Source of the DNA: a virus
Lineage: Duplodnaviria; Caudoviricetes
Length of the DNA stretch: 64,000 bases
Virus record (IMG/VR): IMGVR_UViG_3300028048_000106
Location: 1 to 64,000 of that record
Direction: 5' to 3' (one strand)
Below are positions 1 to 64,000 of the stretch, piece by piece (within the stretch, counting starts at the first letter, position 1; the number at the start of each line of letters is the position of its first letter). The notes under the pieces were generated by a model that saw only the letters and a list, made by a program, of their open reading frames with translations, ran no database searches and had not been told where the DNA came from. The position numbers and the translations under genes were made by a program.

Positions 1-147
1 AAGAAAGAGCCAAAGATGTGCTTCTGTGGGCACATCCACTCAGGGTCGCACAGCATGGCAGTGCTTGGCAAGACTCATGTGTGGAATGTGTCAAGAGTAG
101 ATGAGTCATATGAGATAGCATATGAGCCAACTGTCATCGATGTCTGA
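1..147 (+). CDS. C-terminal end of calcineurin-like metallophosphoesterase (5'-truncated by window)
   Basis: Frame 1 reads KKEPKMCFCGHIHSGSH...WNVSRVDESYEIAYEPTVIDV-TGA; GHIH motif. Confidence 0.7.
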   Translation, partial: KKEPKMCFCGHIHSGSHSMAVLGKTHVWNVSRVDESYEIAYEPTVIDV

Positions 148-613
148 TGAAGTTAACAGCTCTAAAGGCACATTTGCATCTCAATACTATGATGTGTTGA
201 TGCAAGATTACCGTGAACTGTTGAAGAGTACAGGGATCACGGGCGAGGAACTTGACAAAGTGTACCATTCTGAGTCAAGGCATGAGATGGAAGTCAATGC
301 CGACTTGCAAGGCATTGACTTGGCAAATCCTCATGTCTTGCTGTACTTAGCAAAGCAGACTGCATACCATCATGCATTTTGGCCACATACAGCAAAGAGG
401 TTCTTGGCATTCAAGAGCATACTAAGGTACAACAAGCATGTAAGAGCATCTCTTAAAGACGGACAACTGTTGAGCATGATCAATGTCTATTTTGATGCAC
501 TGGTTGCCTATCATTGTGATGACCCCATATATGACACGCCTGGGCATAGGCAAGAGATGAAGAACTTGAAGCAAGTCATCAACATTGTAGAGAAAGCTAG
601 AGAGACGGCGTGA
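140..613 (+). CDS. hypothetical protein
   Basis: TAG-free ORF; ATG at 140 overlaps the upstream stop. Confidence 0.6.
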   Translation: MSDEVNSSKGTFASQYYDVLMQDYRELLKSTGITGEELDKVYHSESRHEMEVNADLQGIDLANPHVLLYLAKQTAYHHAFWPHTAKRFLAFKSILRYNKHVRASLKDGQLLSMINVYFDALVAYHCDDPIYDTPGHRQEMKNLKQVINIVEKARETA

Positions 614-1242
614 AGCACAAGAAGTGGCCAATCTACATTTGGTTCTTAGACAAAGACTTGCCAAAGTCAGCAGAGTACTTGACAGACAAAGCGATGCTTA
701 GGTCTATTGATGGGTGCATTGGTGCACTTGTGTCAACATACTTCTACATGATAGGCATCAGGACAAAGAAGTTCTATGACTACTTCTTTGCAAAAGAACG
801 TGTTCAAGAGACAATGGACAGGTTTTTCCCAAATTGGCCACTTAGCAAGAAGCCATCATTTGCTGCATACAGTAGAAGAGAGTCAAAGTGGTGCAAGATG
901 TGCTTTGAGAATTGGTCTTATGCGAGAGAGTACTTAGAAGCACTGCTTGACGAGGCTACCTATAGAGATGGCTCAGAGCACGCAAGCGCCAGCTTTCTAC
1001 AGTGGCTTGACCTTGACATGCCGCACATTGACTTGCCAAAGGCCAGAATAGATGAAGTTGTGCTGCCATGGAAAGCAATTGAGCCACGGTTCCGTAGAGT
1101 AGATGTCATTGAAGGCTATCGTCTGCAGTTCATGAGCACATTTGAAGATGGCGATCCTTTCAAAGCATATGGGTCTTGTAGAAGAGACATTCCACAGTTT
1201 GTGGTAGAGCACTTCAACTTAGGCACGGCCATGGAAAGCTGA
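610..1242 (+). CDS. pyrimidine-dimer DNA glycosylase (DenV/Pyr_excise)-related protein, divergent
   Basis: N-terminus IYIWFLDKDLPKSAEYLTDK resembles the phage IFYLDxDPxxxAxxxxDKH family; C-terminal VIEGYR. Confidence 0.45.
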   Translation: MKHKKWPIYIWFLDKDLPKSAEYLTDKAMLRSIDGCIGALVSTYFYMIGIRTKKFYDYFFAKERVQETMDRFFPNWPLSKKPSFAAYSRRESKWCKMCFENWSYAREYLEALLDEATYRDGSEHASASFLQWLDLDMPHIDLPKARIDEVVLPWKAIEPRFRRVDVIEGYRLQFMSTFEDGDPFKAYGSCRRDIPQFVVEHFNLGTAMES

Positions 1243-1374
1243 GTCTCTATGCTTTTTATGTGAAGCCTAAGATTTTTTAGTTAGTGCAGAAACCTACAGA
1301 TTTTACAATCTATCTAGACAGTAGAAGACATCAAAGATGTTCAACATAGAACTATAGAAGTAGAATGCATCAAA

Positions 1375-2142
1375 ATGGTAAATGCAGTAATAAAAGGGAA
1401 CCAAAACACAACAAAGCTCATAAATGAGTTGAAGAAGGCGGCAAAGCAGTATCCAACATTGTCAAAAGAAGATGAAGAAGAGCTAGTGAAGACTTATGGG
1501 CATGACCGTGACAAGCTGAACAACTTGCTGTTCATGCACAACATACGTCTAGTCTTCAACATTGCAAAGAAGTACATGGGAAAGACTGATGACTTTGATG
1601 CAATGGTCCAAGATGGAATGCTTGGGCTTGCCATAGCAGCAAAGAACTTTGACATCTCACGTGGAGTGAAGTTCATAACATATGCAACACCATGGGTCAG
1701 AAAGAAGGTGCTAGAAAGGTTCTACTGCAAAGCAAATGAAGTCATAAAACGATCAGTGTCAATGAACTCGCCAGCAATGCAGTCTAGCTCAAAGATAAAT
1801 GACAGCACAGATGGAGATCTTGAGAACTATGTCAATGACTATCTAGACCCTAGTGTGTCTTCATTGAAGTCTTTCCACCAGCAACTGTCAACTAATGAGC
1901 AGAACAGACTATGCGCTGACTTGTACAATGAACTTCAACATGACAGTAGCTTGACAGATAAAGAGAAGAAGATATTCACTGACTTGTTCTACAATAGAGA
2001 AAGAGCAAAAGATGTGCAGCAGATGTATGGCGTGACATCTAAAGACATATCACAAATAAAAGAGAAGATATTGAAGAGCATGCGCAGCCGTCTTGAGTCT
2101 CAGTTTGGCATACATTCATTTTCAGACATATATGACGCATGA
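1375..2142 (+). CDS. sigma70-family RNA polymerase sigma factor (early/middle)
   Basis: Region 2: NIRLVFNIAKKY, MVQDGMLGLAIAAKNFDISRGVKFITYATPWVR; region 4 HTH; no TAG. Confidence 0.9.
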   Translation: MVNAVIKGNQNTTKLINELKKAAKQYPTLSKEDEEELVKTYGHDRDKLNNLLFMHNIRLVFNIAKKYMGKTDDFDAMVQDGMLGLAIAAKNFDISRGVKFITYATPWVRKKVLERFYCKANEVIKRSVSMNSPAMQSSSKINDSTDGDLENYVNDYLDPSVSSLKSFHQQLSTNEQNRLCADLYNELQHDSSLTDKEKKIFTDLFYNRERAKDVQQMYGVTSKDISQIKEKILKSMRSRLESQFGIHSFSDIYDA

Positions 2143-2948
2143 CACCAGTTATAGTCAAGAAAGCACTTGAGGACATCTGTAGAAAGACAGTAGCCGATGG
2201 ATTCTACATTGGATTCCATTTGGATGATGTTGGATTTCATTTGGATGATGACTGCAATAAGATGACTGCTAGACAGCAGTGTCAGATGATGGCTACTGAA
2301 GTAGAAGCAGAATATGGCAGCATTCTATCTAGTCCAACAAAGACAGTTGACCCACATGGAGAAGCAACGCTACTGTACAAAGTTGATGGCCTGTTTCAAG
2401 CATATCCAATAGTAGATGGAGAAGGGTCTATTAAGTTTTTTGCAAAGACGTGGTCTACTATACAGCCTACTGGAATTGTTGTTGTGTCGCATAAATTGAA
2501 GATGCTGTCATTTGTGTGGGCATGCTTTGACAGAGACAACTGGTCTTCAATGCCTGCACTTTGGATGCCTGGAACCAGGACAACACAGTGGGCAGCATGG
2601 CTTTATACTGCAGGTCCATATGAGCCATTGCCTAAGATTTTAAACAATGCAATATACTCAAAGTACATCTCAATGTTCCACCCTAGACGGTCATTTTCTC
2701 CAATAGCGTATGAGATGTGCATTGACATTGACAGCCATTATAGAAATGCACTGTTCTATGAGAAGATAAGTTCTGAAAATGAGATAAGTGGCTTGATGCA
2801 CTGCATTAAGTCTGCACAGTACATCATGGCTAGTCAACAGAAGAAAATAGATGACTTCAATGGAAGAATAGCTAGCATTGAATCTAGTTTAAAGAAGTAT
2901 GAGGTTGACTTGTATGCTTCTAGAGTAGCTTCTGACATAGAGTCTTGA
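2139..2948 (+). CDS. hypothetical protein
   Basis: 269-aa TAG-free ORF coupled to the sigma gene by ATGA overlap. Confidence 0.6.
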   Translation: MTPVIVKKALEDICRKTVADGFYIGFHLDDVGFHLDDDCNKMTARQQCQMMATEVEAEYGSILSSPTKTVDPHGEATLLYKVDGLFQAYPIVDGEGSIKFFAKTWSTIQPTGIVVVSHKLKMLSFVWACFDRDNWSSMPALWMPGTRTTQWAAWLYTAGPYEPLPKILNNAIYSKYISMFHPRRSFSPIAYEMCIDIDSHYRNALFYEKISSENEISGLMHCIKSAQYIMASQQKKIDDFNGRIASIESSLKKYEVDLYASRVASDIES

Positions 2949-3027
2949 ATTTGTTTTCAAGCTATGCAGCAAACCTAAGGTTTTTGCATTCTAGATGTAT
3001 ATTATTTTCAACAAAAAAGTATATTCT

Positions 3028-4371
3028 ATGGTTTAGAATTCTAGAAACATCATATATTGCGCTGACCGTCAAGGGACAGGCTTATGGAGAAGGATATTCT
3101 AGTCAGACACAGTAAATGCAATTGGCTAGAGCACTAATACATCAATAACAACGACTGACATTCCTATCATTGACTAGAAGTACTATCAAGGAATGACATC
3201 AATAACATGCTAGCGGTGGATAAATGACTAGCAACGAGACATATTCTGCCGATTCTTCAAGCCGATCATGGATGCAAATTCAGGATGGCTCATCTATGAG
3301 ATTGATGACAACATGTCTGACACATGCATACCAAAGTTCAATAGAGGCAGAGCAGCATTTGAAGGTGAGCACACACAGTCAAACATACGCTAGATGTTGA
3401 ACACAGCTGACTTTGTTACAGTCACAACTGACTACATTCGAAACTTCTACCATACACACTATGGAGTCCCACTTGAGAACATTGTTGCTGTCCCAAATCT
3501 GCTGCCAAAGTGGTGGTTTGGTGATAGATATGACCCTGAAGCGAAGTTGAAGCAGTTCAGTGCATGCAAGGCAAAGCCACGCATTGGCATTGTGTCATCA
3601 TTGTCACACTACAACGTAGACAATGTCATGGAAGACAAGAATGGCCTTGCTGCTAGAAAGAAGAAGAAGCCAGATGGGACAGATGTTTGGATAAATGAGA
3701 ATGGCCAAGAAGTTGATGAGGCTTAGTTGAGCAAGATAACTGATGACTTTGATGACATTGCTACATGCGTGAGAGAGACTGTGAAAGACTTCTAGTGGGT
3801 GTTCTTTGGCTACTGCCCTCCGCAAGTGAGAGACCTTGCTGAAAAGAACCTCATTGAAGTCCATGGAGGTGTCCCTCTCTTGAACTATGCATCAACATTC
3901 TACAATCTGAAACTGCAGGCCGTTGTGTCTCCAATAAAGAAGACAGAGTTCAACTTCTGCAAGTCGCACATAAAGACTATGGAGTGCGCAGCTCTAGGTG
4001 TCCCGCTTTTTGCAACAAACTGCCTGCCATATAGTAGAGTCATGGACAGGAACTAGCTGTTTGACACATCAGATGAGCTGAAAGAGAAGCTGCTTAAGCT
4101 GAAGTTTGCATCGTCTGGCGTGTACAAGAGGATAATAGAGAAGCAGTGGGAGTGGTTGAACTCGCCATGCAGCGAAGGAGACTTCTAGCTCAACAACTAT
4201 TGGCTAGAAGACAATGTCCGCAATGTCTGGCTTCCATTGTTCAAGCTACGCCAAAAGGGACTTAAGATATCATTGAAGAACTTCATTTAGCAGTATGAGA
4301 AGCGAAAAGAAGAAGAGAAAAAGAAGCTGCTGTTTGTCTCAAAGTCAGGCAAAGCTAAAGTGACACTGTGA
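3028..4371 (+). CDS. GT-B glycosyltransferase (TAG-recoded)
   Basis: Single frame ATG 3028 to TGA 4371 with only TAG interruptions; ADRQGTGLWRR, LIYEIDD, ADFVTVTT, FNFCKSHIKTMECAALGVP. Confidence 0.85.
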
Positions 4372-4385
4372 TTGGAGACAGCAAA

Positions 4386-5231
4386 ATGGACAAAAGAACA
4401 ATAGCAATACATTGGAACAAGAGCAAAGCTGCAGAGATTGTTGAGAAGACTGTGACAAGCTTCTGCATGAGCAAAGACAACTATGATGTCATTCTGTTCA
4501 AGACATCTAGCATGCCAGGTTGGGTAGAGTAGAGAGTCATCAACTATGGATGCAGGGCAATTGACTTCCCTAGCACGGTAGACACTGCAGCAAAGCAAAA
4601 GAACTTCATTCTGTCTTATTTTGAGCAGAACAGCTTTAGAGGCTTTCTGCACATAGTTGAGGATGTTGTTGTGCTAGACAAAGACCCTTTAGACTACATA
4701 TTGAAGATTGAGAACGCCATGGATGTCTTTGACTACAGCATATTCTTCTCAACGGTGACTGACCCATGCAACTACTTGTTCAAGAAGTTCAATCCACGGT
4801 TGACGCTAGACGTTGATGATGATGCATTGAAGTCAAGATTCAACTTGTCAGACAAGATCTCTTTCACAAGCCACTCTAACACATGCTGGACTATATATGA
4901 CTTCAACAAAAATGCTACTGCCTAGAAGTTTGATGAGCAGTTCAGCATTGGGATGTTCATGATAATTGAGTATCTTGCTAGACGCCGTTCTACAAGACAG
5001 CAAGGGCAGCTGTACTACATGAACTAGTACCTGAGCATCTCTGATGAGGTAGGGACATACCATGCATAGACAATAGATGAAGACCAAATTGACCCAAAGA
5101 AGATGCAAGAAGAAGACCAGGTGTTCAAGGCAATGAAGATTGACTATGCACCAGACAACAACATTGACACTACGCTTGATGACTTCTACTAGAAGATTCA
5201 GTAGAAGATAGAGCAGAAGACAGAGAGATAA
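4386..5231 (+). CDS. putative glycosyltransferase (GT-A-like, TAG-recoded)
   Basis: Continuous frame to TAA 5231 under TAG read-through; QKNFIL...FLHIVED, FDEQF. Confidence 0.6.
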
Positions 5232-5267: not shown

Positions 5268-5837
5268 ATGACAACTATCAAATTTGACAAGAAGTTGAAA
5301 TGTGGAAATGACTTTGTTGCTGTTGAAGTGCTAGATGTGCTCAACACAGCTAAAGTAGGGAACATCTATTTGCCAGACTCGTTTGGAGCAAATGCACGTC
5401 TTGCCCACTGCAGAGTGACAGATGTTGGCATAAAGGCAAAAGAGAAGCTTGGCATTGAGGTTGGTGACTATGTCATGATTGACCGTCTGTCAACATTTGC
5501 TTGGACAGCTCCATCTGCTGTGCTCAAGTATGACTCAGTCATTATGAAGACTAATGACAACAAAAGTGAGTATTATCCACTCAAAGACACGGCGTTCATT
5601 GAGCCAGACCAAAAAGAAGATGCAACTGATGTCAATGGCGTGCTTGTTGTCAACTATGACAAGCGGTTGAACCTTGGAACAGTCATCAAGAAGAGCTTTG
5701 ACAAGACAGATGAGTATCCATTTGATGTTGGTGACAAAGTCATGCTTGTCAAGGGCGGTGACATAGTAGACCTTGGAGAGAAGAAGATTTACATCTACAA
5801 GAAAGACATGATAGTCTGCACAGTAGAGGACAATTGA
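5268..5837 (+). CDS. tandem two-domain GroES-like co-chaperonin
   Basis: Two Cpn10-like repeats: NDFVAVE..GNIYLPD..VTDVG..IEVGDYV and PLKDTAFIE..GTVI..FDVGDKV..DMIVC. Confidence 0.75.
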   Translation: MTTIKFDKKLKCGNDFVAVEVLDVLNTAKVGNIYLPDSFGANARLAHCRVTDVGIKAKEKLGIEVGDYVMIDRLSTFAWTAPSAVLKYDSVIMKTNDNKSEYYPLKDTAFIEPDQKEDATDVNGVLVVNYDKRLNLGTVIKKSFDKTDEYPFDVGDKVMLVKGGDIVDLGEKKIYIYKKDMIVCTVEDN

Positions 5838-7763: not shown

Positions 7764-8294
7764 ATGGATACATTAAGATACACAAAAGTTAGAGAAGTGA
7801 AGAGCCCAGTCCGTGGGACTCCAGTTGCAGCAGGGATTGACTTCTTTGTCCCAACGTCTATTGACAAAGAGACATTTGAGAGCAAATGCAAGACTACTGG
7901 ATGTGGTGTTTTTGCTGAATACAATGAAGATGGAATGCTCACTCGAATTGAGCTTAAGCCTGGCGAGTCAGTCATGATCCCTTCAGGAATCAAGATGAAA
8001 GTCCCTTATGGCCATGCCTTAGTCTTCATGAACAAGTCTGGCATTGGCGCAAAGAAGCAGCTTGCTGTCCTTGCCTGTGTAATTGATGAAGACTACGAAG
8101 GTGAAGTGCACATAAATCTTGTCAACACTGGAAAGAACATCCAACAGATTGCTGCAGGTGACAAGATAGTTCAAGGCTTAGTCATTCCTGTCAACTATGC
8201 AGTGCCAGAAGAAGTTGAAAGTGAAGACACACTGTATAAGAACTCTACTTCTCAGCGAGGTGAAGGAGGGTTTGGGTCTACTGGAAGTCGCTGA
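7764..8294 (+). CDS. dut: dUTP diphosphatase (trimeric)
   Basis: AAGIDF, KSG, VIDEDYEGE, GDKIVQ, RGEGGFGSTG. Confidence 0.95.
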   Translation: MDTLRYTKVREVKSPVRGTPVAAGIDFFVPTSIDKETFESKCKTTGCGVFAEYNEDGMLTRIELKPGESVMIPSGIKMKVPYGHALVFMNKSGIGAKKQLAVLACVIDEDYEGEVHINLVNTGKNIQQIAAGDKIVQGLVIPVNYAVPEEVESEDTLYKNSTSQRGEGGFGSTGSR

Positions 8295-8349: not shown

Positions 8350-8423
8350 GCCTCTAAGCTGTTTTGGCAAGCTATATGCCTTAGAAAAGTAAATAAAACA
8401 TGAACAACTATGGAGACATACAT

Positions 8424-8921
8424 ATGAAAAAGACAATACTTAACACAGTTTGTGCATTTGCACTAGGTTTAGCCTTCTCTGGCTGCATGACTTCTACTGG
8501 ATTCATCCAAGTTGACAAGCACACTGCAGCATAGAATGGAATAGTTATAACGCACGTTGAAGACAATCCATTCTTTACAACAATTGAGTATGACTACTCA
8601 AGCATTGAGAACTTCACTACAAATGCAATTGAAGTCACATTAGTCCACAATTTTGTGCCAGAAGACCCAATGGGATATTTGACTTACTATTCAGATGACT
8701 ATAATGCTGCAGTGAACAAAGTTGACTACTACAATCCATGGGGAGCTTACATGCACAACATGCAACAATTGACTACTGTTGAAGGCATAAACATAACAAA
8801 GCTTCCTAATAGACCAGCTATAATTTGGAAGAATGAGCCAGGAAAACTAGTCATTGCAAGCTTTGATGACATTGGAACATACTAGATACGCTATAATAGT
8901 AGTCTTTGCTAGTCAAAATAA
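8424..8921 (+). CDS. putative lipoprotein (TAG-recoded)
   Basis: MKKTILNTVCAFALGLAFSG-C lipobox; GGAG RBS; three TAG; GTAAATA at 8389. Confidence 0.7.
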
Positions 8922-9874: not shown

Positions 9875-9974
9875 TGCTCTTGAAGACAGCCTAGAGATTC
9901 TTTAGGCTGTTTTTGTCTTGTTTTTCATTGAGTTCATCTCTATCCTCGTATTTTATAGTCAAAGGAAAAGTCAA

Positions 9975-11885
9975 ATGAAGAATGTAGTCATATTTGCTGG
10001 TGGGCATGGCGCCGTGAAGCTCCAGCAGTCTATTGCTAAGTGGGGTGGTCCAGGTGTTAATGTGCAGATCATCATATCAGCATATGACAATGCTAAGTCA
10101 ACACTAGCTTGCCGTCAAGTGTTTGACCACAAGATACTTGGTGTGTCAGACTTGAGGAAGAACCACATCACACAGTACAAGATACAGCAGTTTAGTGGCA
10201 GCATTAGTTCAAGTAATGCAACTACTGCTCAGCAGATATATGATTGGCTAGAGTATCGACTTCCAAAAGACTGGAACAAAAGCTTTGAAGAGACATATGC
10301 ATATGTCAAAGACACATATGTTGGCGAGCAAGCAAAGTACTTCTTCACAATATATGACCTTGAGACGCTGAAGCATGCTGTTGACAACTTCTTCTTGCAG
10401 CCTAAGGCAAAAGACATCAACTATGCTGACTTTGCTCTTTCAAACATCTTGTATGCATCATTGGCAAACATGAATGGCAACAGCCTTGAGACAGCTGGCA
10501 ACTTGATGTCTAAGATGCTTGGCATAGAAGACAATGTCCATCTCATCTCAAATGTGAACTTGTACCTCCACGCAAAGAGCGTCAATGGGCATGACCTCAA
10601 TGATGAAGATGTCATGTCACAGTGGAAGAGTGCTTCTGACCCTATTGACCATCTATACTATGTAGACAGAGATGGAAATGAGCACTACCCAACAGTTGAT
10701 GAGCTTCCAGACAGGACAATTGACCCAACACATAAGTGTGAGAAGCTGCTTGACAATGCTGACATCATCATCTTCTCAAGTGGAAGCCAATGGACGTCTT
10801 TGATACCTACTTATGCACAGCATGGCTTCAATGCCATCATCAAGAGGTCGAAGGCAAAGAAGTACTTGGTGATGAACAATGTTGAAGACAGAGACCTCTA
10901 TGGGTGCAATGCTGACTGGATATTGGCACAAGTCAGCAAGTATGTTGACATTGATGACTTCACTGTTGTCTTGAACTCAAATGCCATTAGCACTCTAGAC
11001 CATCTAGAAGACAAGAAGTGGAAGAGCATTACTGCGCCATTGTCTGACTCTAAAGGTGACCCTGTGCATAACCTTGAGGTGTTCAAGGTGATAATGGCTG
11101 ACTATGTCAAGCCATTGACAGACTACTCACACAAGTTTGTGTTTGACTTTGATGACACGCTTTGGTCAACAAAGACAATCGATGCTGACTTAGATGCTTG
11201 TGCAGACAACCTCATCCGTTTTGCAGAATTGAAGAAGAAAGGCATTTGGTCAATGATATTCAGTGGGAACAAGATAGCACGGTTCAAGAAGCTGTTTGAC
11301 AGCTATGCACATGCTGTTGGCAATGGCTCTACATTCAATGATGTCTTCTCACAGTTTTACTGCAACTTTGGCAACTCAAAGTACCACTTTGAAGATGGAA
11401 AGTTCTTGTTTGATGGGAAAGTGTTCAAGAACATATCAATGTTCAGCCACTACTTCAACTTAGTTGACTACTTAGTCAAGAGCTTGAACAAGAGCAAGTT
11501 GTTCTTGAACTTCAACACAAAGCTTGACTACTCTAACTTTGAGAACTGTGGTGATGTCAATATAGCAGTCTCTCCACTCTGCCACCGTGAGGAAGTGCTT
11601 CCAGTGTTCAATGAGCTCATTGATGAGTACAATGCATTCTACTATACCGACTTCCATGCATACATCAATGGAAACACGACAATTGACATCCTCTACAAAG
11701 ACTTTAACAAGGCATCATGCCTGAATGAAGTCCTCAGAGATGAGAAGTTCAACTACATTGGCGACAAGCTTGAAGATGGGAATGACGCATCAGTCAAGAC
11801 CATAAAGCTTGCAAACTGCATGTCAGTTGACGATGTCTATGACACAAACTTCTTGCTGAGAGCATTGGAGGCATTCATTGGATAA
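9975..11885 (+). CDS. YvcK/CofD (UPF0052) domain fused to HAD-IIB phosphomannomutase-like domain
   Basis: N: VVIFAGGHG, SAYDNAKST, SDLR, ADIIIFSSGSQWTSLIP; C: FVFDFDDTL, NGNTTIDI..FNKASCL, YIGDKLEDGND. Confidence 0.85.
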   Translation: MKNVVIFAGGHGAVKLQQSIAKWGGPGVNVQIIISAYDNAKSTLACRQVFDHKILGVSDLRKNHITQYKIQQFSGSISSSNATTAQQIYDWLEYRLPKDWNKSFEETYAYVKDTYVGEQAKYFFTIYDLETLKHAVDNFFLQPKAKDINYADFALSNILYASLANMNGNSLETAGNLMSKMLGIEDNVHLISNVNLYLHAKSVNGHDLNDEDVMSQWKSASDPIDHLYYVDRDGNEHYPTVDELPDRTIDPTHKCEKLLDNADIIIFSSGSQWTSLIPTYAQHGFNAIIKRSKAKKYLVMNNVEDRDLYGCNADWILAQVSKYVDIDDFTVVLNSNAISTLDHLEDKKWKSITAPLSDSKGDPVHNLEVFKVIMADYVKPLTDYSHKFVFDFDDTLWSTKTIDADLDACADNLIRFAELKKKGIWSMIFSGNKIARFKKLFDSYAHAVGNGSTFNDVFSQFYCNFGNSKYHFEDGKFLFDGKVFKNISMFSHYFNLVDYLVKSLNKSKLFLNFNTKLDYSNFENCGDVNIAVSPLCHREEVLPVFNELIDEYNAFYYTDFHAYINGNTTIDILYKDFNKASCLNEVLRDEKFNYIGDKLEDGNDASVKTIKLANCMSVDDVYDTNFLLRALEAFIG

Positions 11886-13873: not shown

Positions 13874-13874
13874 C

Positions 13875-14312: not shown

Positions 14313-14337
14313 CAGCTATAGCATGTATATTTTAAAC

Positions 14338-20850: not shown

Positions 20851-20862
20851 GGGCAAAAAAAG

Positions 20863-43063: not shown

Positions 43064-43166
43064 CAAAGACTGCTATCTGCAGTAGTTGCTAGATTTAAAG
43101 ACTAAGCATAAATAGCACAAAATCCATCTTTGGCTATTGCTAGCTTTAACTTGTACAATATATGAT

Positions 43167-44471: not shown

Positions 44472-44515
44472 ATAAAGTATGTTGTACAACATATAGAAAC
44501 TTAAGGAAAAAAACA

Positions 44516-45676: not shown

Positions 45677-45902
45677 ATCAAATGACATTAGTCTGCTTGA
45701 TGTGTCAAGCCAATAGGGTGAACGAGAGAAGTGCTGTGCCAAGTGCAAGTACTTTGAAGAACGGACATGCTTTTGCCGCTTCAACCCTCCAATCCCTGTT
45801 GTCACACACAAAGACAATGGGCAGACATTTGTCACATCGGTCTACTCAAAGATAAACATGCCTAGCATTGATTGGTGCTAGAAGTTCGACAAAAAAGACT
45901 AA
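45669..45902 (+). CDS. small Cys-cluster protein (TAG-recoded)
   Basis: CCAKCKYF..CRFNPP..DWC(TAG)KF. Confidence 0.65.
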
Positions 45903-52718: not shown

Positions 52719-52740
52719 GTATACAACCTACTTGTCTAGA

Positions 52741-53694: not shown

Positions 53695-53720
53695 GACTAT
53701 ATGGTACTCCTATAGACTTG

Positions 53721-54329
53721 TCAGTCTTCTTCAACAAGCTTTGTTGTTGGGAACATCTTTCCTGCATGCAAGTCAGCAAGAAGCTGTTTCTGCTCATCTG
53801 TCAAGTTCTGCTCAAGCTTCTTTGACTCTTCATCAGCTTTTTTCCAATACTCAATGCTCTTAGGGTCTAAGTTGGGGTCATAGTATGTCCCATCGGGCTT
53901 GCTGACTCTATTCAGCAGTGACTCTATTGTCTCAGTAGGAGCCCACTCAACGTCAAGATGCTGCCTTTCTGTACTGCTGTTTGGGTCATTCCAATACCCT
54001 TGGTCTTTCCACTTCTTGTTGGGGTCATATATGATCCTGTGCTTCTTCAAGTCAACTATGCTTCCATCATTGAGCTTGAACAGCGGAGAGTCACCAAGAA
54101 ATCCAAAAGCTGGCATAGGGCCATTGAAGTAAGGGATGTCTTGATTTGGGACAGTGAGCTTTGCACTTGCTGTTGGATCATATGGCCTAGCTTCAGGGAC
54201 AGTCAAGTGTCTAGCACTAGACTGCTTGTCTACAGCAAAAGCCTTCTAATATGGCTGCCCATATGCAAAATTCCTAAAGCGACTTTGGTTTAAAGGGTTT
54301 GCAAGAGGATGCGGATTTGTGGCTGTCAT
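53721..54329 (-). CDS. hypothetical protein (one TAG)
   Basis: ATG 54329, 6 nt after TACAAT, in frame with track ORF 53721-54206. Confidence 0.65.
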
Positions 54330-55540
54330 AGTGATATTGTATCATAAAACATAAACTATTTATGTTTCAGCTTTTGTGAAGAGGGACAATAGGCTCCTCT
54401 TCGTAGAATGTTTATAGCTGCGTTAGTGTCTGCATCTATATCCAATCCACAAGAGCAGTGGTAGTGCTCACCTTCTCGGTTTGCCTTTATCACCGCACCA
54501 CATTTTGAGCAAGTCTGGCTTGTGTAAGCTGGATCAATCTTAGTCAACGTGAAACCTTCACTTTCACTAAGTGACTCCAGCTTGTCAATGACTTGCCTAT
54601 AAGACCAATATTGAAGCTTGTTGTTGACTGACTTGTAGAATGAAGACTTGTGCTTCACGTTCTTCAAGTCTTCACAAACTATGTCATAGTCTTGATGCTC
54701 TTCAACAAACTTCTTTGTCAGACGATTTACTTCATTTTCTTTGAATTTCAAGAGCTTTTGGTATTTCTTTGACCCTCTCTTCTTGTTTGTCAATCTCTTA
54801 TAGATGTCAATTAGCTCTTTTCCATAGAACTTCCCATTTGAGTCAGCAATCAACTTGTGGTAGCCAAGGTCAATTCCAATCTTCTTTTGGTTGTCTTTCT
54901 TCTTTGCATCTTCCTTTTCATATATGAAGTTCAAGAAGTACTTTCCATTGATTCTTTGCAATTGAACTGACTTCTTCCTCTTCCAGTCTTTGAACTTCAA
55001 ACTATGTTTATGGTGCTTGATTGGCAAGCAGATTGTCTTTGCTCTTTTCTTTCCTTCTTTGAAGATTGGCAAGAAAATCCTGACAAACATGTCAAACTCT
55101 CCATCATCACATTCTTCAATGTCAAAGAGATTCTCGTTCAACATTATTGAGATGTTCTTCAAGTCAAACTTCAGTCTCTTCAGATAATTGATGTTGAGTT
55201 CGTGGAAATGTTTGTCAGTGAAATTCTTGAACTTGTTGTTCTTCAAGCACCATCCAAAAACCTTCTTGTATTTTCCAAAGACTCTTTGTCTAAGATTTGC
55301 TAATTGACTTCTGACAATTTCACTCGCATTCTTGTATACAAGCTACTTAAAACGCGAATGCTTAATTGCACACTCTGGACAGTCTTTAGTTGATAGATAC
55401 TGCTTGATTGGCAACTGTCCTCTTTTGATTAGCTCAAGATAAGTCTTCAAAGATGACTCGTACAAAGCAAACATCTAGTCAAGATCATTTGTCTTAACTT
55501 GGTTACAAAACTTCAAACTATGCTTGCTTGTTCTTGTCAT
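54326..55540 (-). CDS. tnpB: TnpB/Cas12f-like RNA-guided nuclease (TAG-recoded, no TnpA nearby)
   Basis: RuvC IGIDLG, IVCEDL, DADTNAAINI; Zn ribbon CSKCG..CSCG; frame extends to ATG 55540 through two TAG. Confidence 0.9.
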
Positions 55541-55704: not shown

Positions 55705-56205
55705 ATGTCAGTCTCAAAAGAGTTTCTAGAAGAAGCAGAGTTTGCAAAGAACAGAATAATGCAGAGCAATCTTGACACATCATGCAAGAAATCTCTGCAC
55801 CGTCTCGTGAACATATCAACTGAAGCAACAAATGGCTTGACTCTTGATGAGAAAGTGCAGAAGATAACAGAGGCAATCTGTGGAATGGTGTTCTCACAAG
55901 TCAACTTCCTTGACACAGTTGACAAGAAGATAGAGAATGCAAACAAAGAGCAGTGCAAGACATGCATTGCTATGAAGCATGCTACTGATGAAGAGAGCGA
56001 GAAGACAAAGCAATAGGTAATAGAAGAGTGGAAAAAACAGCATGGATACACTGAAGACAAAAAAGAATCAGAGAAGATGAGCATTCTTGACACAGTCAAA
56101 GCTGTGCTTGTGAAGCCATATGTCTGGCTGTTTGGTGCAATATTAGTCTTCAGTCCTTATGGTGTCTAGATAGTAGATGCTATACTGAAGTTCTTCAACA
56201 AGTGA
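55705..56205 (+). CDS. late protein with C-terminal hydrophobic segment (TAG-recoded)
   Basis: Read-through of TAG 56014 adds PYVWLFGAILVFSPYGV; GTAAATA at 55674. Confidence 0.65.
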
Positions 56206-56284: not shown

Positions 56285-57220
56285 TCAATTCATTTTCTCA
56301 AGAACACTTTTCCAATAGGCAATTGCTTCTGTGATCTGCTTCTTTGTGTACTGCTTCTTAGTAGGCTTTGACTCATCAAGGCGCTTTTCATTGATTTTTT
56401 TCGATAAGTCATCAATATCTTTGTCAAATGCTGACTAGTTGAACCCTGCATCCTTGAGGATGCTCCGACCATTCTGTGTTATCAGGTACTTGTTGCCTTT
56501 ACTTGTAGCAACGCCCATGTCAACTAATTCATCTAAGATCTTGACTTGTGCATTGAAGTCTTCTTTTGATGCATCGCATATCTTCTTGATGTCATCTTTG
56601 CTAAGTCCATTGCCTTTTGTCTGGGCAAGAGATGTGAGCAATGCAATCTATCCATCATCTAAGTTCTTTAATGCATGCTTATTCTCAAAGTACTTCTATA
56701 TCTTATGGCCGCCATATGCTCCAATGCCAACTAATGCAAGCGCTGGAATAAGACCAGCTCCAAGCAAAGCAGACACAATACCGCCAGTAATCCACCCAAG
56801 TATTCCACCAATCCATCCTTCATTCAAGATCTCATTCGCATTTTCTTCTTCGTAGAACCTATGGCGACTGCCACCGTTATTCATTCCAAGGCCCATGCCT
56901 TTCATACGTGCATTGTTCATGAAGAGCATTGCTTTCTCAAATGCTGCACGAGGACTTGGATTCTGCTCTTTTATCTGTCCAAGACTGTAGAAGAACTTGC
57001 GTGTCCACTCTGTGTTCAGTCCAGCGTCATCAAAAAGCTCATGGCAGAGTGCAACAACATCTTCAAATGTGCGGCACTTGTTGAAACGCTCAAAGTTTGT
57101 TGTCAATATCTCAGCAACTGAGCCAGGGATCTTTGAGAGGTCTAAGTCATTGAACGACTTGAATTGGGCTTCATCTATGTTTTTGTCTGTCTTCATGTTA
57201 TGTCTTTCTTTGTAGTTCAT
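56285..57220 (-). CDS. late protein with central Gly-rich hydrophobic hairpin, possible ejected virion protein (TAG-recoded; start 57220 or 57196)
   Basis: Continuous frame to TGA 56285; GWIGGILGWITGG..VGIGAYGG; GTAAATA at 57249-57255. Confidence 0.7.
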
Positions 57221-57239
57221 GTTATGTCTTTCTTTGTAG
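57192..57239. repeat. perfect 24-bp tandem duplication spanning RBS and start codon
   Basis: TTCATGTTATGTCTTTCTTTGTAG x2. Confidence 0.9.
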
Positions 57240-57258
57240 TTGTAGATATATTTACTTT

Positions 57259-58071
57259 TTATGACACATAGAAGCACTGCGCTTTGCTCTCACGAGAGAT
57301 GAGCTCTTCTAGTATCTTGTCTTTCTCTTCTTTCCCTTCATTGTATATCTCTACGTCAAGAGTGCCACCGCCTAGAAGTGCTGTGCCCTAGAACTTCTTG
57401 CGTATTGTGCCAACGAGCATCTTTGCTTCTGCTAAAGCGAGGTGCAAGACTGTGTCATTGCCATAGTACTGCTCAAGTGGTGGCTCAGCATTCACAGTCA
57501 AGAGAATGAACCGGTCGCGGCCACAAGGATGTGGTTCAGGTATCAAGCGCAGATGCTGTGTGACTTTGTCAAACTCGAAGTCTGGGTTTGAGCCAGTCAT
57601 CTTCTTGCTGAGGTCATAGAACTCATGTGCATTGTGGTACAATGTCCACATTCCAACAGGGTTTGCATTGCCCATTCCATACATTGGTGACCCTTGCCCT
57701 TGGCCCATGTATGCATACATGCCAAAGAACATGTCTGGCTAAGTTCCAAATATTGCATCTCGCTGTGTTGCAATGTCTTTCACAGACATGATCTTGAACT
57801 CATGCAAGTCAAGCCCTTCACCCGGCTTGTAGTACTTGAGGTTCACAGTGAGATATGACTCTTGGTGGTACTCGTATCTTGAGAATATGCGGATTGCATT
57901 TGCTATGCATGAATTCAACTAGTTGTCATTCAACTCTACTGTGACAAGTGGATATCCAAGCTAAGTAAGAATCCAGTCTTTCACTTTTTCAATTGTGTCA
58001 ATCTTCTAGTTGAGCCATGTGTCATTTGGATCAATTCTGATCTCTGGCTTCTCTTTTACAGCATTCTTCAT
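57259..58071 (-). CDS. neck protein (T4 gp13-like), TAG-recoded
   Basis: ILT(TAG)LGYPLVTVELNDN(TAG)LNSCI vs T4 gp13 [38 protein letters not shown]. Confidence 0.88.
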
Positions 58072-58113: not shown

Positions 58114-58368
58114 TCATAGACTAATGCTTCCAAGCTATAAGTTTCTATATACTGTTCTGCAGCTTGGATATGCATAGCTATGCTGTGGCTGCCAATGATT
58201 GAATGGCACCCCATAGTCATATACACTTTTGAGATGGCTATACTCATCCCTAGTGATGATGCACTCAATGCCAATAAGGTCACATTTCATTCTAAACTCA
58301 TCATATGTTGATGTGCTTCTCAATGCATCTACCATTGCATCTATGTCATAGTCTACGCCATCTTCCAT
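58114..58368 (-). CDS. small hypothetical protein
   Basis: ATG 6 nt after TACAAT; TAG at 58135, next TGA at 58114. Confidence 0.55.
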
Positions 58369-59244: not shown

Positions 59245-60435
59245 TCAGTTCTTCAAATAGTTGTCTACTTTGCTCTTGTAGTCACGCATTCCATAAGTCT
59301 TTGGCTGGAGGCTCTTCAACTCTTCAAGCAACTTAGTCTGCTTGCTGTCAAGACTGTCAAATGGCATGACTTTGAACTCAACAACTAGACTCCCTCTTGC
59401 ATCTTTTGACCTCACTCCTTGTCCTGGAAGCGTCTTTGTTGCTCCACTTGTTGTCTTTGCTGGCACATCAACCATCAGCTTTTCCCAAGGAGTCTGGACT
59501 TCAATCTTCCCACCTAGCGTTGCTGTGATGGCATCTATAGGCACAACAGTCTTCAAGTTCATTCCACTTCTTGCAAAAAGACTGCTTGGTGACACTGAGA
59601 TGCCTATGTACATGTCACCATTGTGTCCACCTTTCAGTCCACACTCTCCTTTTCCATGCACTCTAAGGCGTTGACCGCTATCAATTCCAGCAGGCACTTT
59701 CACTGACACGCGCTTCTTGGCATCAACTCGTTTCTGTCCATGGCACTTCTTGCACAGCTTTGCTGACACACCTTGCCCATGGCAGTGCGGGCATGGACTT
59801 ATTGTCTGAGACACCATAAATCCATTCCGCTGTGTATGGACAACTTGCCCTGTGCCATTGCAGTGAGAGCACTTAGTTGGACTGCTTCCTTTCTCTACTC
59901 CTCGCCCAGAGCATTCTGGGCATGGGTCACTCAAAGTCAAGTCAATGTCTTTGACACAGCCATACAGCGCTTCTTTGAATGTCAACTGCATTGCCATCTG
60001 CAAGTCACTGCCATTCTCAGGTGAGTCAAAGTCGGGCTCTCTACTGTGGTGTCTTCTACTTCCAAATCCACCAAAGCCAAATGGACTGAAGCCAGCATCA
60101 TCTTCTTCTTCAAATGGATTTCCACCAAAGTGCGCTCTAAACAGGTCAAACGGATTGAACCCAGATGAGCTGAAGCCACCTCCCATACTAGGGCCATCAA
60201 ATCCAAATTGGTCATATTGGGCTCTCTTGTCTTTGTCTGAGAGCACTGAGTATGCTTCAGCAACTTCTTTGAACTTTGCTTCTGCATCTTTCTTCTCAGA
60301 CTCGCTTTTGCCAACTTGACGGTCAGGATGGTACTTCAAGCTTAGCTTGTGGTAGCTCTTCTTCAACTCCTCATCGGTAGCATTCTTTCCAACGCCAAGC
60401 ACTTCATAGTAGTCACGTCTGTCTGCCATAGTCAT
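59245..60435 (-). CDS. dnaJ: molecular chaperone DnaJ
   Basis: J domain HPD, G/F region, four CxxCxGxG-type repeats. Confidence 0.95.
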
Positions 60436-60755
60436 TTTTCACTTTCTGCGGCGTGCTTTTCATTTGTCTGTTGGCCATGCCCTGGATCTGCAATGATCTT
60501 GTTTACACGGCAAAATGACTCATCATCATTCTTCTGCTCTATTGAGTAGTCAATGATTGACAGCACCTGAGGGATGCCTCTAAGATAGACGCTCTTGAAC
60601 CAAAAAGCAAAAGACTCAACTGCTGCTTTGTCTTTCTTATCTATGATGAACTGGTTGCGGCCAGAGTCTTCAAGCACAATGACTGTGTCATGAAGCTCTA
60701 CTCCACATATAAAGCATGACCGAAACCGCTTAACTTTGTCACTAGTAGTAGCCAT
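60432..60755 (-). CDS. hypothetical protein
   Basis: ORF overlaps the dnaJ start. Confidence 0.5.
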
Positions 60756-60778
60756 ATCTATATGTATGAAAACAAAAC

Positions 60779-60805
60779 TTTGACTGGCAGTAACTGCCAG
60801 TCAAA
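60779..60805 (-). terminator. intrinsic terminator after dnaK
   Basis: TTTGACTGGCAG/CTGCCAGTCAAA. Confidence 0.75.
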
Positions 60806-60826
60806 GACATTTTACAACTTTAGGCC

Positions 60827-62791
60827 TCAAACGGTCTCAGCATCAACCGTTCCAGAGTCATTGCCCGTTGTTCCAGCACTGCCACTTGATGTTGATGCTC
60901 CACCCATGTTCTTGAACATCTCAGCAAACTTAGGGTCATTCTTCATCTTCTCTAAGTCTTCAGCAGAGAAGTTTGGCATCTGTCCATTTGCTCCAGCGGG
61001 GTAGATCTTCTTGACAACCGGCTCCCATGCCTTTGTCAAAGCATCAACAGCATCTTTCACCTTCTGGATGTCATCAGTCTTCATCTCTTCACGGACTTTG
61101 GCAATTGCATCATTGATGGCTTTCTTCTCATCATCTGTTGCTTTGTCACCATTGTCTTTCAGAGTCTTCTCAATAGAGAAGCACAGACTGTCAGCTGCAT
61201 TCTTCTCCATCACAACTTCAGCACGCTTCTTGTCTTCTTCTTCATGCGCCTCAGCATCGGCCTTCATGCGCTCAATCTCCTCTTTTGAGAGGCCAGACCC
61301 ATTTGTGATGGTGATGTGCTGCTCTTTGTTTGTCCCAAGGTCCTTTGCAGACACTGATATGATGTTGTTTGCATCAATGTCTACTGTCACTTCAATCTGT
61401 GGGACTCCACGTGGAGCAGGAGGGATTCCATCTAAGTTGAAAGACCCGAGCAGCTTGTTGTCAGCAAACATCTTGCGGTTGCCTGTTGCTAGACGTATTG
61501 TCACGGCTGGCTGGTTGTCTACTGCTGTTGAGAACACCTGTGACTTCTTTGTTGGGATTGTTGTGTTCTTCTCAATGAGTGTTGTGAATATCTGGCCCAT
61601 TGTCTCAATGCCAATGTCAAGAGGCGTCACGTCAAGAAGAAGGACATCTCCACCAACATTCTCGCCAGCAATGATAGATGCCTGTATTGCTGCTCCTTCT
61701 GCAACAACAGTGTCAAGATTTGCATTCTTGCTTGGCTCTTTATTGAACAGTGCCTTGACTTTCTCTTGCACCAAAGGCATACGGCAAGAGCCACCAACAA
61801 GGACAACATCATCAATCTCACACTTTGCGTCATCAAGCAAAGCTTTTACTGGAGCGTCAAGACGGTCTACAAGAGGAGCAGCTAGCTGCTCAAACTTTGC
61901 ACGTGTGAGCTCATACACCAGGTGCTTAGGGCCAGATGCATCAGCTGTGATGAATGGCAGATTGATAGAGTATGAAGGTGTAGTAGACAGTGCGCACTTA
62001 GCCTTCTCAGACTCTTCAACAATCCTCTGCATTGCCATTGGGTCATTGCTCAAGTCAATGCCATTGTCTTTCTTGAACTCTGCAACAAGCCAGTCAGCGA
62101 TGGCATTGTCGAAGTCCCAGCCACCAAGATGGTTGTCGCCATTTATTCCAATGACTTCAAACACACCATCTGCAATGTCAAGTATAGAGAGGTCAGATGT
62201 GCCACATCCAATGTCAGCAATTGCAATCTTTCCAGTCTTCTTCTTTGAAAGGCCATATGACAGACAAGCAGCTGTTGGCTCTGACAGCACTCTGACACAC
62301 TCCATGCCAGCAATTGTTGCTGCATTCTTTGTTGCTTCTTTTGCTGCTGCATTGAAGTATGCTGGAACAGTCACAACACACTTCTTTATCTCATATCCAA
62401 GATATGCTTCTGCATCTTTCTTCAACTTTCCAAGTATCTTAGCTGAGATCTCTTCTGGAGAGTACAGCTTGCCATCAATCTTCACTCTGCACTGGTTGTT
62501 TGGCCCTGCCACAACCTCATATGGCACGTTTGCAATCTCATCTTTGGCTTCATCTACTGTCTTTCCCATGAAGCGCTTTATTGCAAACACAGTGCGCTTA
62601 GGGTTTGTCACGCGCTGCCGCGCTGCTTGTGTTCCAACAAGAATCTCACCAGATGATGTAAATGCGACAACAGATGGTGTTGTCATGCTGCCAGTGTCCT
62701 TTGCTGGAATTATGATTGGCTTGCCTCCTTCAGAGATGGCAACAACCGAATTGCCTGTTCCCAGGTCAAAACCTACAATTTTGTCACTCAT
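60827..62791 (-). CDS. dnaK: molecular chaperone DnaK (Hsp70)
   Basis: GFDLGTGNS, TVPAYFN, EPTAA, VLLLDVTPL, PAPRGVPQIEV. Confidence 0.97.
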   Translation of the reverse strand: MSDKIVGFDLGTGNSVVAISEGGKPIIIPAKDTGSMTTPSVVAFTSSGEILVGTQAARQRVTNPKRTVFAIKRFMGKTVDEAKDEIANVPYEVVAGPNNQCRVKIDGKLYSPEEISAKILGKLKKDAEAYLGYEIKKCVVTVPAYFNAAAKEATKNAATIAGMECVRVLSEPTAACLSYGLSKKKTGKIAIADIGCGTSDLSILDIADGVFEVIGINGDNHLGGWDFDNAIADWLVAEFKKDNGIDLSNDPMAMQRIVEESEKAKCALSTTPSYSINLPFITADASGPKHLVYELTRAKFEQLAAPLVDRLDAPVKALLDDAKCEIDDVVLVGGSCRMPLVQEKVKALFNKEPSKNANLDTVVAEGAAIQASIIAGENVGGDVLLLDVTPLDIGIETMGQIFTTLIEKNTTIPTKKSQVFSTAVDNQPAVTIRLATGNRKMFADNKLLGSFNLDGIPPAPRGVPQIEVTVDIDANNIISVSAKDLGTNKEQHITITNGSGLSKEEIERMKADAEAHEEEDKKRAEVVMEKNAADSLCFSIEKTLKDNGDKATDDEKKAINDAIAKVREEMKTDDIQKVKDAVDALTKAWEPVVKKIYPAGANGQMPNFSAEDLEKMKNDPKFAEMFKNMGGASTSSGSAGTTGNDSGTVDAETV

Positions 62792-62875
62792 ATTTTGTTT
62801 CCTTTGTATTCAAAACAGTCATATTTGATCTATTTCATTTCTATAATATACTTGCCTGACTACTATTTCTGTTGG

Positions 62876-63325
62876 TCAATGGCTGACTATTTGATGGTAC
62901 TTCTCATAGTCAAATGGTGCATCTTCATCAATGATGCCTTTCTGCTTGAGCTCCATCCAAAGCTCGCACTCTGGAGTCAAAGAGTATGTTGCATCTGGCA
63001 GCACAAGGTACTTTGTGTATGCCATGCTGTCTCTCAGGCTGCTGTCATCCATTGACTCAGATATGACTGGATAGTACTCTCCATCATCTACATTGTATAT
63101 GACTAAGTCAACTATGCGTGGAAAGTCTTCATCATCAAGCTCATCACTTGGCAACAAAGGGTCAGGGCAGCCGTGCTCTTCAGCAACTTTATTGTAGATG
63201 GCATCTATGACTTCATCATATGTAAGGCTAGCCTCATCTTTGTCTAGCTCAACTTTGACATTGACTTCCTCACCACCGTATGGAAGCTCTACTACTGCTG
63301 CAAATGTTGTCTTGTTTGTCTTCAT
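62876..63325 (-). CDS. acidic hypothetical protein
   Basis: ORF track; ATG 6 nt after TACAAT. Confidence 0.6.
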   Translation of the reverse strand: MKTNKTTFAAVVELPYGGEEVNVKVELDKDEASLTYDEVIDAIYNKVAEEHGCPDPLLPSDELDDEDFPRIVDLVIYNVDDGEYYPVISESMDDSSLRDSMAYTKYLVLPDATYSLTPECELWMELKQKGIIDEDAPFDYEKYHQIVSH

Positions 63326-63494
63326 GTATACATTGTACTTTGTCTAGTTGGAAACTAAATCACAGTCAGTGCATCTAGACGCATTGTCAGTCTTTGGCTT
63401 CATCATCTACTGTCTGGCCAACTATCTTTGCACTGACTATCTTCCACTCTCTACTGCTGTCAAGCTTCTTCATTGACAAAAATCTCGCACCAAG

Positions 63495-63521
63495 ATCACA
63501 TCCTTTTAGGGAGTGATTCAC
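63495..63521 (-). repeat. IS200/IS605-type end hairpin upstream of second TnpB
   Basis: Reverse complement GTGAATCACTCCCTAAAAGGATGTGAT resembles the 23070 and 38003 copies. Confidence 0.6.
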
Positions 63522-63598
63522 GTGCGAGAAGAGTAAATAAGATATGAAACAACATTAAGTCAATAGATTTCCAAGTCAAGAGAGTAAATAAGATTGCA

Positions 63599-64000
63599 AT
63601 GAGCAGAGGACTCCATACAGAAGAAGAGAAGGCAAAGATAAGAGCTAGCAAGCAAGCTACAGCTCTTAGGCACTCTTCTATGGATGCTAAAGTCTATGAG
63701 CTCAAGATTGTTGAGAGAAGACTTAACAAACAGCAGAAAGAACAACTTGAATTACTATTCTTAGAAGGAAAATGGTTCTACAACCACATTCTTTCAGAGA
63801 AGAAGAAAAGAGAAATCCCACTTCATTGCATTAATCCAACTCACTATAAAGACATCTTAAAACTAGACAAAGACAAAAATAAAGTCTCATACAAACTCCA
63901 AATTCTTCCTTCTCACTTCAAGCAGACAATCCACATGAGGATGATTTCGAATGAGAAGACAATTCGTTCATTGGTGAAGAAAGGCTTGCAAAGATATGGT
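63599..64000 (+). CDS. TnpB-family protein, N-terminal part (3'-truncated by window)
   Basis: KVYELKI..LNKQQKEQLELLFLEGKWFYNHIL; IS-end hairpin upstream; RuvC lies outside the window. Confidence 0.65.
   Translation, partial: MSRGLHTEEEKAKIRASKQATALRHSSMDAKVYELKIVERRLNKQQKEQLELLFLEGKWFYNHILSEKKKREIPLHCINPTHYKDILKLDKDKNKVSYKLQILPSHFKQTIHMRMISNEKTIRSLVKKGLQRYG

Follow-up and report, generated by a model that had tools for sequence, protein, structure and literature searches.

The Caudoviricetes record IMGVR_UViG_3300028048_000106 raises the question of why the genes for its portal, terminase, neck, tail and fibre are interrupted by TAG codons while those for replication, nucleotide metabolism, chaperones and a sigma70-like factor are not, and what this split could mean for the order in which the two groups are translated. 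The DNA analysed, hereafter the window, makes up the first 64 kb of one viral contig of 92,187 bp, which lacks a terminal repeat and for which CheckV estimates a completeness of 34%. Overall, we consider it likely that this is a distantly T4-like jumbo phage of the rumen in which TAG encodes glutamine and acts as a translational lock on late genes. To the left, the contig is extended by 85.7 kb with the ENA contig ERZ27252073:k141_1141552 (129,534 bp), found by exact-protein look-up and walked in 10-kb steps, which is identical to it across an 11,242-nt overlap. Together they make up 177.9 kb, and the phage genome is thus of at least 178 kb. Rightward extension was not achieved, as exact-protein look-ups with two right-end genes gave no match.

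TAG is a sense codon in this phage

On the 92-kb contig, the coding density rises from 0.775 (145 genes) under the standard code (code 11) to 0.913 (106 genes) when TAG is read as sense, with no gain when TGA (0.64) or TAA (0.75) is treated in the same way. The corresponding values in the left extension are 0.565 and 0.952, and almost all the genes there are recoded, with 551 TAGs in 55 genes and open reading frames (ORFs) of up to 2,745 aa, one of them with 58 TAGs. The contig carries 228 in-frame TAGs in 38 genes (1.90 per 100 codons), with no other stop interrupting these genes; the window accounts for 164 TAGs in 29 genes (8,663 codons), next to 38 genes (11,001 codons) without any, and the extended 178-kb gene set holds 787. 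These genes were chosen by a codon-usage picker that leaves TAG out of the scoring, their ends at TGA or TAA being given by the construction of TAG-sense calling. A greedy picking of ORFs by length under TAG-sense was rejected, as it yielded spurious antisense frames, for example 52700-53905 (+), which lies opposite a TAA in a relative.

A first-pass annotation of the window, made from its letters and ORFs, had claimed that the portal, terminase, neck, tail, fibre and glycosyltransferase frames are broken only by TAG, which the ORF lists under both codes bear out, and the comparison of coding densities that it had proposed gave the gain described above. TAG is a sense codon in this phage, and long frames such as those of the portal (13 TAGs), the terminase large subunit (TerL; 13), the glycosyltransferase at 2899-4371 (15) and the DUF4422 protein (12) are whole only when it is read so, the genes then lying closely packed and for the most part in one direction. 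An annotation of the genome under code 11 is therefore badly wrong, with 329 gene calls over the 178 kb instead of 163. An origin of the interruptions in pseudogenes, assembly errors or leaky read-through without reassignment has a negligible probability, because nothing but the in-frame stops themselves speaks for it, while all 228 interruptions on the contig are due to TAG and none to TAA or TGA, the frames are also found conserved in assemblies made independently, and TAG interchanges with CAG and CAA between relatives.

This interchange also indicates which amino acid TAG specifies. Every protein of the contig was aligned to relatives drawn from IMG/VR and ENA (38-82% protein identity), and the codon on each side was recorded; IMG/VR held no relatives for TerL and none for a radical-SAM-like gene. 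At 121 positions a TAG faces a sense codon, which encodes Gln 48 times (CAG 33, CAA 15), followed by Glu (13), Ser (12), Ala (9) and Lys (7). Using substitution frequencies from the same alignments, Gln is ahead of the next residue by 135 log-likelihood units, so that the tally of residues suggested in the first-pass annotation favours the residue that it had named. The motifs that it quoted are all present with TAG at the starred position (Y*RRAMGFLCERL at 14911, IA*LNHY at 15645 and DN*L at 57927 on the minus strand), and its statement that a TAG of the gp13-type neck protein occupies a conserved Gln agrees with the alignment to T4 gp13, where two TAGs face Gln, one of them at the DN*L site (VELTPDQI in T4). 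In the portal, one TAG lies opposite a Gln of T4 gp20. In addition, when TAG is counted as Gln, this residue makes up 4.4% of the TAG-containing set and 3.0% of the set without TAG. Among 150 distant TerL representatives, the TAG sites appear as variable polar positions (Glu 21%, Ser 11%, Gln 10%), a result that would be compatible with Gln, although it is weaker than that of the close relatives and counts slightly against the proposed reading. The DUF4422 homologues were discarded as evidence for Gln: the nearest ones belong to relatives that are recoded too and were probably translated with TAG as Q, and thus their Gln residues are not independent, and the only homologue likely to use the standard code (34% identity) is uninformative. 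Taken from these alignments, the assignment of TAG to glutamine is strongly supported.

Two gene sets, a putative late promoter box and the proposed timing of decoding

The TAGs are unevenly distributed among the genes. On the contig, in-frame TAG is missing from 62 genes (15,880 codons), compared with 18.5 TAG-free genes expected at a uniform rate. Since TAG is about equally frequent in the two non-coding frames of both gene sets (1.65% and 1.92% on the contig, 1.6-1.8% in the window), its absence reflects selection on the codon and not on the trinucleotide. The claim of the first-pass annotation that replication, nucleotide, chaperone and sigma70 genes are free of in-frame TAG holds gene by gene, and relatives display the same split, with PolB, clamp loader and exonuclease TAG-free and with TAGs in portal and TerL. 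Two gene sets therefore exist and are conserved in the relatives. The division into early and late genes that had been drawn from them agrees with gene function, with a promoter box and with the relatives, but it is inexact, as Gp23, PARP and epimerase genes are TAG-free despite their late setting.

The putative promoter box is an AT-rich (G)TAAATA located 3-40 nt upstream of late-type genes. The T4 late promoter is TATAAATA, which the GTAAATA box resembles. The contig contains 21 copies of GTAAATA, about the number that we estimate from base composition, and 18 of them lie at most 80 nt upstream of a start codon on the same strand; over the 178 kb, this is the case for 33 of 43 copies. The boxes of the 178 kb precede 27 TAG-containing and 4 TAG-free genes (Fisher p=0.0016), so that the use of TAG is linked to this putative promoter motif, an association which provides independent support for the early/late reading.

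The sigma factor that could recognise such a box seems to be subject to the same code. A gene at 37266-37913 (-) encodes a gp55-like late sigma (T4 gp55, 7d7c_F, E=3.3e-7 over residues 66-168) and contains 8 TAGs, at codons 8, 18, 21, 22, 24, 45, 169 and 213. Six of them precede the conserved domain and that of codon 169 comes just after it, and no alternative start yields a code-11 ORF of 100 aa. As judged from its reading frame, this gp55-like sigma itself needs TAG decoding. A DUF4422 ORF in the relative L006 was considered as a homologue of this gene and rejected, the true homologue being L006:8101-9189, with one TAG.

Within genes, the TAGs are concentrated towards the 5' end. Among contig genes of at least 100 codons and at least two TAGs, the first 50 codons hold 59 of 219 TAGs, about twice the 14.5% expected (p=1e-6), and the same is seen for genes whose starts are anchored by a box (16 of 54 TAGs; p=0.003). 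CAA and CAG are evenly spread along genes, without this skew. Errors in start codons could inflate the 5' excess, which we take only as a lead; with TAGs so placed, translation before a switch of code would stop early.

These observations can be combined into a scheme, in which the timing, the standard code of the host, the switch of code in mid-infection and the decoder are all inferred. The TAG-free genes (replication, nucleotide metabolism, chaperones and the sigma70-like factor) read alike under either code, so that a host with the standard code could produce their proteins as early as the onset of infection. The TAG-containing set comprises packaging, neck, tail, fibre, several glycosyltransferases, TnpB, a diversity-generating retroelement (DGR) and the gp55-like sigma, mostly behind T4-late-like GTAAATA promoters, and would be fully translated only in the presence of a TAG-decoding activity. 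TAG would then represent a second lock, at the level of translation, on the late programme. As the late sigma gene contains TAGs, decoding should precede late transcription. Three genes with a single TAG located 4-19 codons before their TAA or TGA (window 30236-31309; window 58114-58368 (-); contig 65076-65363 (-)) may be standard-code genes that terminate at this TAG and are prolonged by a short tail once the code has switched; the first of them encodes a deoxyribosyltransferase-phosphoesterase and ends at the TAG of 31292-31294.

Several genes weigh against this scheme. The Gp23 capsid gene (PF07068; 499 aa), at 79271-80770 of the ENA record (L046:11474-12973), is whole under code 11 and TAG-free inside an 86-kb TAG-rich block where its neighbours have about 2% TAG, and the 80 nt upstream of it contain no GTAAATA box. 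Also TAG-free are the PARP gene and two further genes, all three behind GTAAATA boxes, as well as the epimerase gene with its position inside the late block. Furthermore, glycosyltransferase, TnpB and DGR genes carry TAG, so that the match between TAG and late genes is not exact. Since Gp23 is the most abundant late product, its lack of TAG in 499 codons, which has a probability of ~3e-5 at the rate of its neighbours, suggests that very abundant products shun TAG whenever they are made. Avoidance of TAG could then follow the expression level or the cost of translation instead of timing, suppression never being fully efficient, and the three TAG-free genes behind boxes would fit this idea too. 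Nevertheless, we regard it as unlikely to account for the split, because it leaves unexplained both the pile-up of TAGs at the 5' ends and the fact that all replication and nucleotide genes, low-copy enzymes included, are TAG-free. Such an effect could act together with a temporal gating of the late genes without replacing it.

A historical origin of the split, with TAG-free genes recently gained from standard-code cells and TAG-containing genes as old residents, was also considered. Cellular counterparts exist for DnaK, DnaJ, Cpn10, dUTPase, epimerase and PARP, and the epimerase would be explained as a TAG-free gene within the late block. However, PolB, the clamp loader and the exonucleases are TAG-free both here and in relatives with 62-78% identity, and the TAG-free state of these core replication genes thus seems to be maintained. 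Moreover, a search of 185,579 species genomes gave no close homologue of the epimerase, DnaK is 47-56% identical to bacterial DnaK except for one match of 74% on a short Lachnospiraceae-binned contig, and the mobile TnpB and DGR genes do carry TAG. Therefore, we find a purely historical explanation highly improbable and retain the gating of late genes by TAG.

The search for the decoder

The searches for the TAG decoder count among the points against the scheme proposed above. No tRNA was found on the 92-kb contig with ARAGORN and Rfam, and neither tRNA nor transfer-messenger RNA (tmRNA) in the 177.9 kb with introns allowed. Likewise, the contig has no RF-1, PCRF or glutaminyl-tRNA synthetase (GlnRS; tRNA-synt_1c) domain, and the called genes of the left extension have no Pfam match to a release factor (RF) or GlnRS. 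The statement of the first-pass annotation that the window lacks a suppressor tRNA and a release factor gene is in line with these searches. The wider search for tRNA-CUA, GlnRS and RF2 that it had asked for was negative in the 178 kb, which cover part of the genome, about a third being unseen. As the contig corresponds to ~34% of the genome, little can be concluded from the lack of a suppressor tRNA in the window.

Two large IMG/VR relatives, reached through the right-end gene of the contig, give an idea of what the unseen part could contain. G004 (414,060 bp) has a direct terminal repeat and is 100% complete according to CheckV, and G005 has 201.6 kb. In both, a tRNA array lies 11-24 kb beyond the homologue of the contig right-end gene: that of G004 (361964-370950, L113) comprises 28 tRNAs and a tmRNA (tag GNDYRMAA), and that of G005 (182878-194582, L114 and L115) comprises 31 tRNAs, among which a tRNA-Thr has a 194-nt intron. 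Therefore, the array of the present phage is probably located just off the contig, and, by analogy with these relatives, the likeliest decoder would be a suppressor tRNA encoded beside this array, in the unseen stretch of the genome. Nonetheless, none of the 28 tRNAs in the whole genome of G004 has a CUA, UUA or UCA anticodon, and no RF or GlnRS domain was detected in G004 and G005. An odd tRNA of G004, to which ARAGORN assigned the anticodon 'ca', was examined and rejected, as it has an irregular loop and is of the CAU type, not CUA; a pattern search for suppressor-like tRNAs in G004 and G005 gave matches at chance level only, which ARAGORN rejected. With no CUA tRNA in the 178 kb or in the complete relative, a suppressor tRNA encoded by the phage is not demonstrated. 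In-frame TAG is about ten times sparser in G004 (48 genes with at least two TAGs, a 3,888-aa ORF with 20 and a portal with 3) and the portals of the two phages share only 38% identity, which makes G004 a weak proxy.

These negative results leave room for two variants without a recognisable phage decoder, neither of which we favour. According to the first, the decoder belongs to the host, where a suppressor tRNA or a near-cognate tRNA-Gln reads TAG after an early phage protein has disabled RF1. This is consistent with the lack of CUA tRNA, RF2 and GlnRS in both the 178 kb and the complete 414-kb relative, with the many TAG-free early genes that have no assigned function, and with suppressor tRNAs having been detected in only ~40% of TAG-recoded genomes (Borges et al., 10.1101/2021.08.26.457843). 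Still, it has a low probability in our judgement, since about a third of the genome is unseen, the tRNA arrays of the relatives begin 11-24 kb past the right end, the 414-kb relative is a weak proxy for the reasons given, and no candidate RF1 inhibitor was identified. The second variant, which is equally doubtful, is that the phage recodes without a suppressor tRNA, RF2 or GlnRS of its own because an unrecognised early TAG-free product reprogrammes the termination or the tRNAs of the host. The 5' TAGs and the TAG-locked gp55 would then form a gate with two keys, the switch of code followed by late transcription, and the capsid gene would stand outside it.

Relation to known phages and gene content

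The recoding of late genes with TAG is already published, rumen jumbo phages with gp20-type portals included. TAG and TGA recoding occurs in many clades of gut phages, with Lak, crAss-like, Agate and others among the TAG-recoded (code 15) ones; there, the recoded codons are found in structural and lysis genes and a model was proposed in which standard-code genes act first, as in the scheme above; clades with large genomes have several recoded modules across the genome (Borges et al., 10.1101/2021.08.26.457843). The earlier claim that code-15 gut phages concentrate their recoded codons in late genes matches this work. The present phage resembles them in the assignment of TAG to Gln and in the recoded structural or late genes, and many of their genomes have no detectable suppressor tRNA. 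It differs in that the split can be followed to single genes and goes together with a box of the T4-late type and with a gp55-like sigma whose gene contains TAG, with the capsid exempt; no lysis genes were identified in it. In a 2026 survey of jumbo phages (PMC13037316), rumen phages had the highest rate of alternative codes, and the worked example was a Portal_GP20 gene broken by TAG under code 11. The phage studied here would share with them the rumen habitat, the jumbo size and the gp20-type portal broken by TAG, whereas suppressor tRNAs were reported in 61% of the code-15 rumen or gut jumbo phage genomes of that survey and none was found in our 178 kb. The rumen origin is itself deduced from the scaffold name of a relative, which has the style of the Stewart 2019 rumen assemblies.

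The closest GenBank phages are T4-like, with 24-29% identity in portal and polymerase. Homologues of gp55, gp20, gp13, gp43 and gp23, a gp44-type clamp loader and the TAAATA-type box are shared with T4, which uses the standard code; in contrast, TAG decoding is required here for the late sigma as well as for most of the genes under its control. Because the T4 homologues are all remote (24-29%), the phage should belong to a distant lineage outside the named families. To the published picture it adds the link to a promoter, a late sigma whose gene carries TAGs, a capsid gene exempt from recoding and the excess of TAGs towards the 5' ends. It offers a clean case, gene by gene, of stop-codon recoding that would lock the late genes, and does so in a lineage well removed from the Lak and crAss-like phages, in which the tie to a recognisable late promoter and late sigma makes the order of events testable. 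The phage also adds to a published gap, that of the many TAG-recoded phages without a recognisable decoder.

Among the TAG-containing genes on the plus strand of the window, those for structural and packaging proteins encode a fibre-like protein (18359-20059; 11 TAGs; phrog_25468, E=2e-15, and a weak YadA_head match; GTAAATA 28 nt upstream), the gp20-type portal (34488-36317; 13 TAGs; phrog_213, E=1e-73; T4 gp20, 6uzc, E=4.5e-25; relatives with 58-76% identity), the tail tube (42443-43063; 4 TAGs, all in the first 46 codons; phrog_45, E=2e-10; GTAAATA 8 nt upstream) and TerL (47831-49738; 13 TAGs; phrog_5989, E=4e-50; 9,415 homologues; GTAAATA 28 nt upstream). Three late genes at 38137-41447 (3, 5 and 5 TAGs), with a GTAAATA at 38097, have homologues in L006, and three more at 43050-45902 (8, 4 and 2 TAGs) have homologues in the relative L013. 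The glycosyltransferases are located at 2899-4371 (15 TAGs; phrog_7162, E=2e-17), 14290-15057 (DUF4422-type, with ATG 14341 as likely start; 12 TAGs; PF14393, E=1.5e-28) and 15054-15824 (family 2, bearing the IA*LNHY motif; 4 TAGs; PF13704, E=4e-13). Uncharacterised proteins are encoded at 4368-5231 (6 TAGs), with a start overlapping the preceding stop, at 15848-16675 (8 TAGs) and, downstream of a GTAAATA box, at 8400-8921 (3 TAGs; box 4 nt before the ATG), 22267-23073 (5 TAGs; 7 nt) and 55705-56205 (2 TAGs; 24 nt). Many of the TAG-rich genes have no match in PHROGs or Pfam.

On the minus strand, besides the late sigma, TAGs occur in the gp13-type neck gene (57259-58071; 5 TAGs; T4 gp13, 9mkb, E=1.5e-7; phrog_211; GTAAATA 8 nt upstream) and in uncharacterised genes at 36608-37285 (7 TAGs; called by its coding score and with a homologue in L006), 56285-57277 (3 TAGs) and 62876-63463 (4 TAGs in the first 40 codons). 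A TnpB/Cas12f-like transposon protein (54326-55540; 3 TAGs; PF07282, E=1e-20; phrog_506) is preceded by two GTAAATA boxes, and a second gene of this type at 69635-70921 (-) of the contig also has 3 in-frame TAGs and GTAAATA boxes upstream. Therefore, these genes of mobile elements seem to have taken up the code and the late promoter of the phage.

The TAG-free genes of the plus strand begin with the sigma70-like factor (1375-2142; phrog_351, E=2e-29), a Cpn10-like co-chaperonin (5268-5837; PF00166, E=1e-8) and a dUTPase (7764-8294; phrog_135, E=1e-38). They continue with an operon for a CofD-like protein, an uncharacterised protein, a Bgt-like glucosyltransferase and a dCMP deaminase (9918-14312; PF01933, phrog_7922, phrog_174), a dNMP kinase with a thymidylate-synthase-like protein (16813-18206; phrog_761, phrog_160), and an uncharacterised protein with an ATPase (20110-22221; phrog_7485, E=2e-54). 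The family-B DNA polymerase is in two parts (23202-25238 and 27119-28429; phrog_262, phrog_3339), between which lies a TAG-free HNH homing-endonuclease gene (25356-27083); in the relative L012 the polymerase frame is uninterrupted. A GTAAATA at 25269 is situated 5 nt before an ATG at 25281, and this start would give the endonuclease 25 more codons, one of them TAG. Further on, a dehydrogenase, the deoxyribosyltransferase-phosphoesterase, a 598-aa protein and a WGR-PARP protein are encoded at 28721-34455 (phrog_9582, PF15891, PF00644), the last of them (33154-34455; PF00644, E=1e-21), with WGR and PARP catalytic domains, having a GTAAATA box before the gene. The nucleotide-sugar epimerase is found at 41497-42426 (phrog_540, E=4e-21), within the late block.

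The minus strand encodes, without TAG, the clamp loader and an exonuclease (51759-53694; phrog_168, E=1e-58; phrog_107), which are TAG-free in the relative L009 too, and DnaJ, a small uncharacterised protein and DnaK (59245-62791; PF00012, E=5e-219; PF00226, PF01556). A DnaK 74% identical to that of the phage is encoded on a 4.3-kb contig (L015; CAVJGK010000129.1) from the bin of a Lachnospiraceae metagenome-assembled genome. This contig is probably a mis-binned phage fragment, and as a hint to the host it is weak; apart from it, the DnaK search yielded no host signal that could be used.

Outside the window, the left extension (1129-86862 of the ENA record, loci L045-L054) encodes giant TAG-rich proteins of 2,745, 1,866, 1,591 and 1,368 aa, together with many LRR_5 (BspA-like) repeat genes that are visible under code 11 merely as fragments. 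On the contig, a 204-aa stop-free frame includes a phage-encoded IF3 C-terminal domain at 69072-69320 (-) (locus L014; PF00707, 81 bits). Finally, a DGR-like unit at 75278-80036 of the contig (L004:11278-16036) consists of a gene for a 793-aa target and a reverse transcriptase (phrog_1423, E=1e-82), both TAG-rich, and the same segment of ~45 aa matches at the C-terminus of the target and upstream of the reverse transcriptase.

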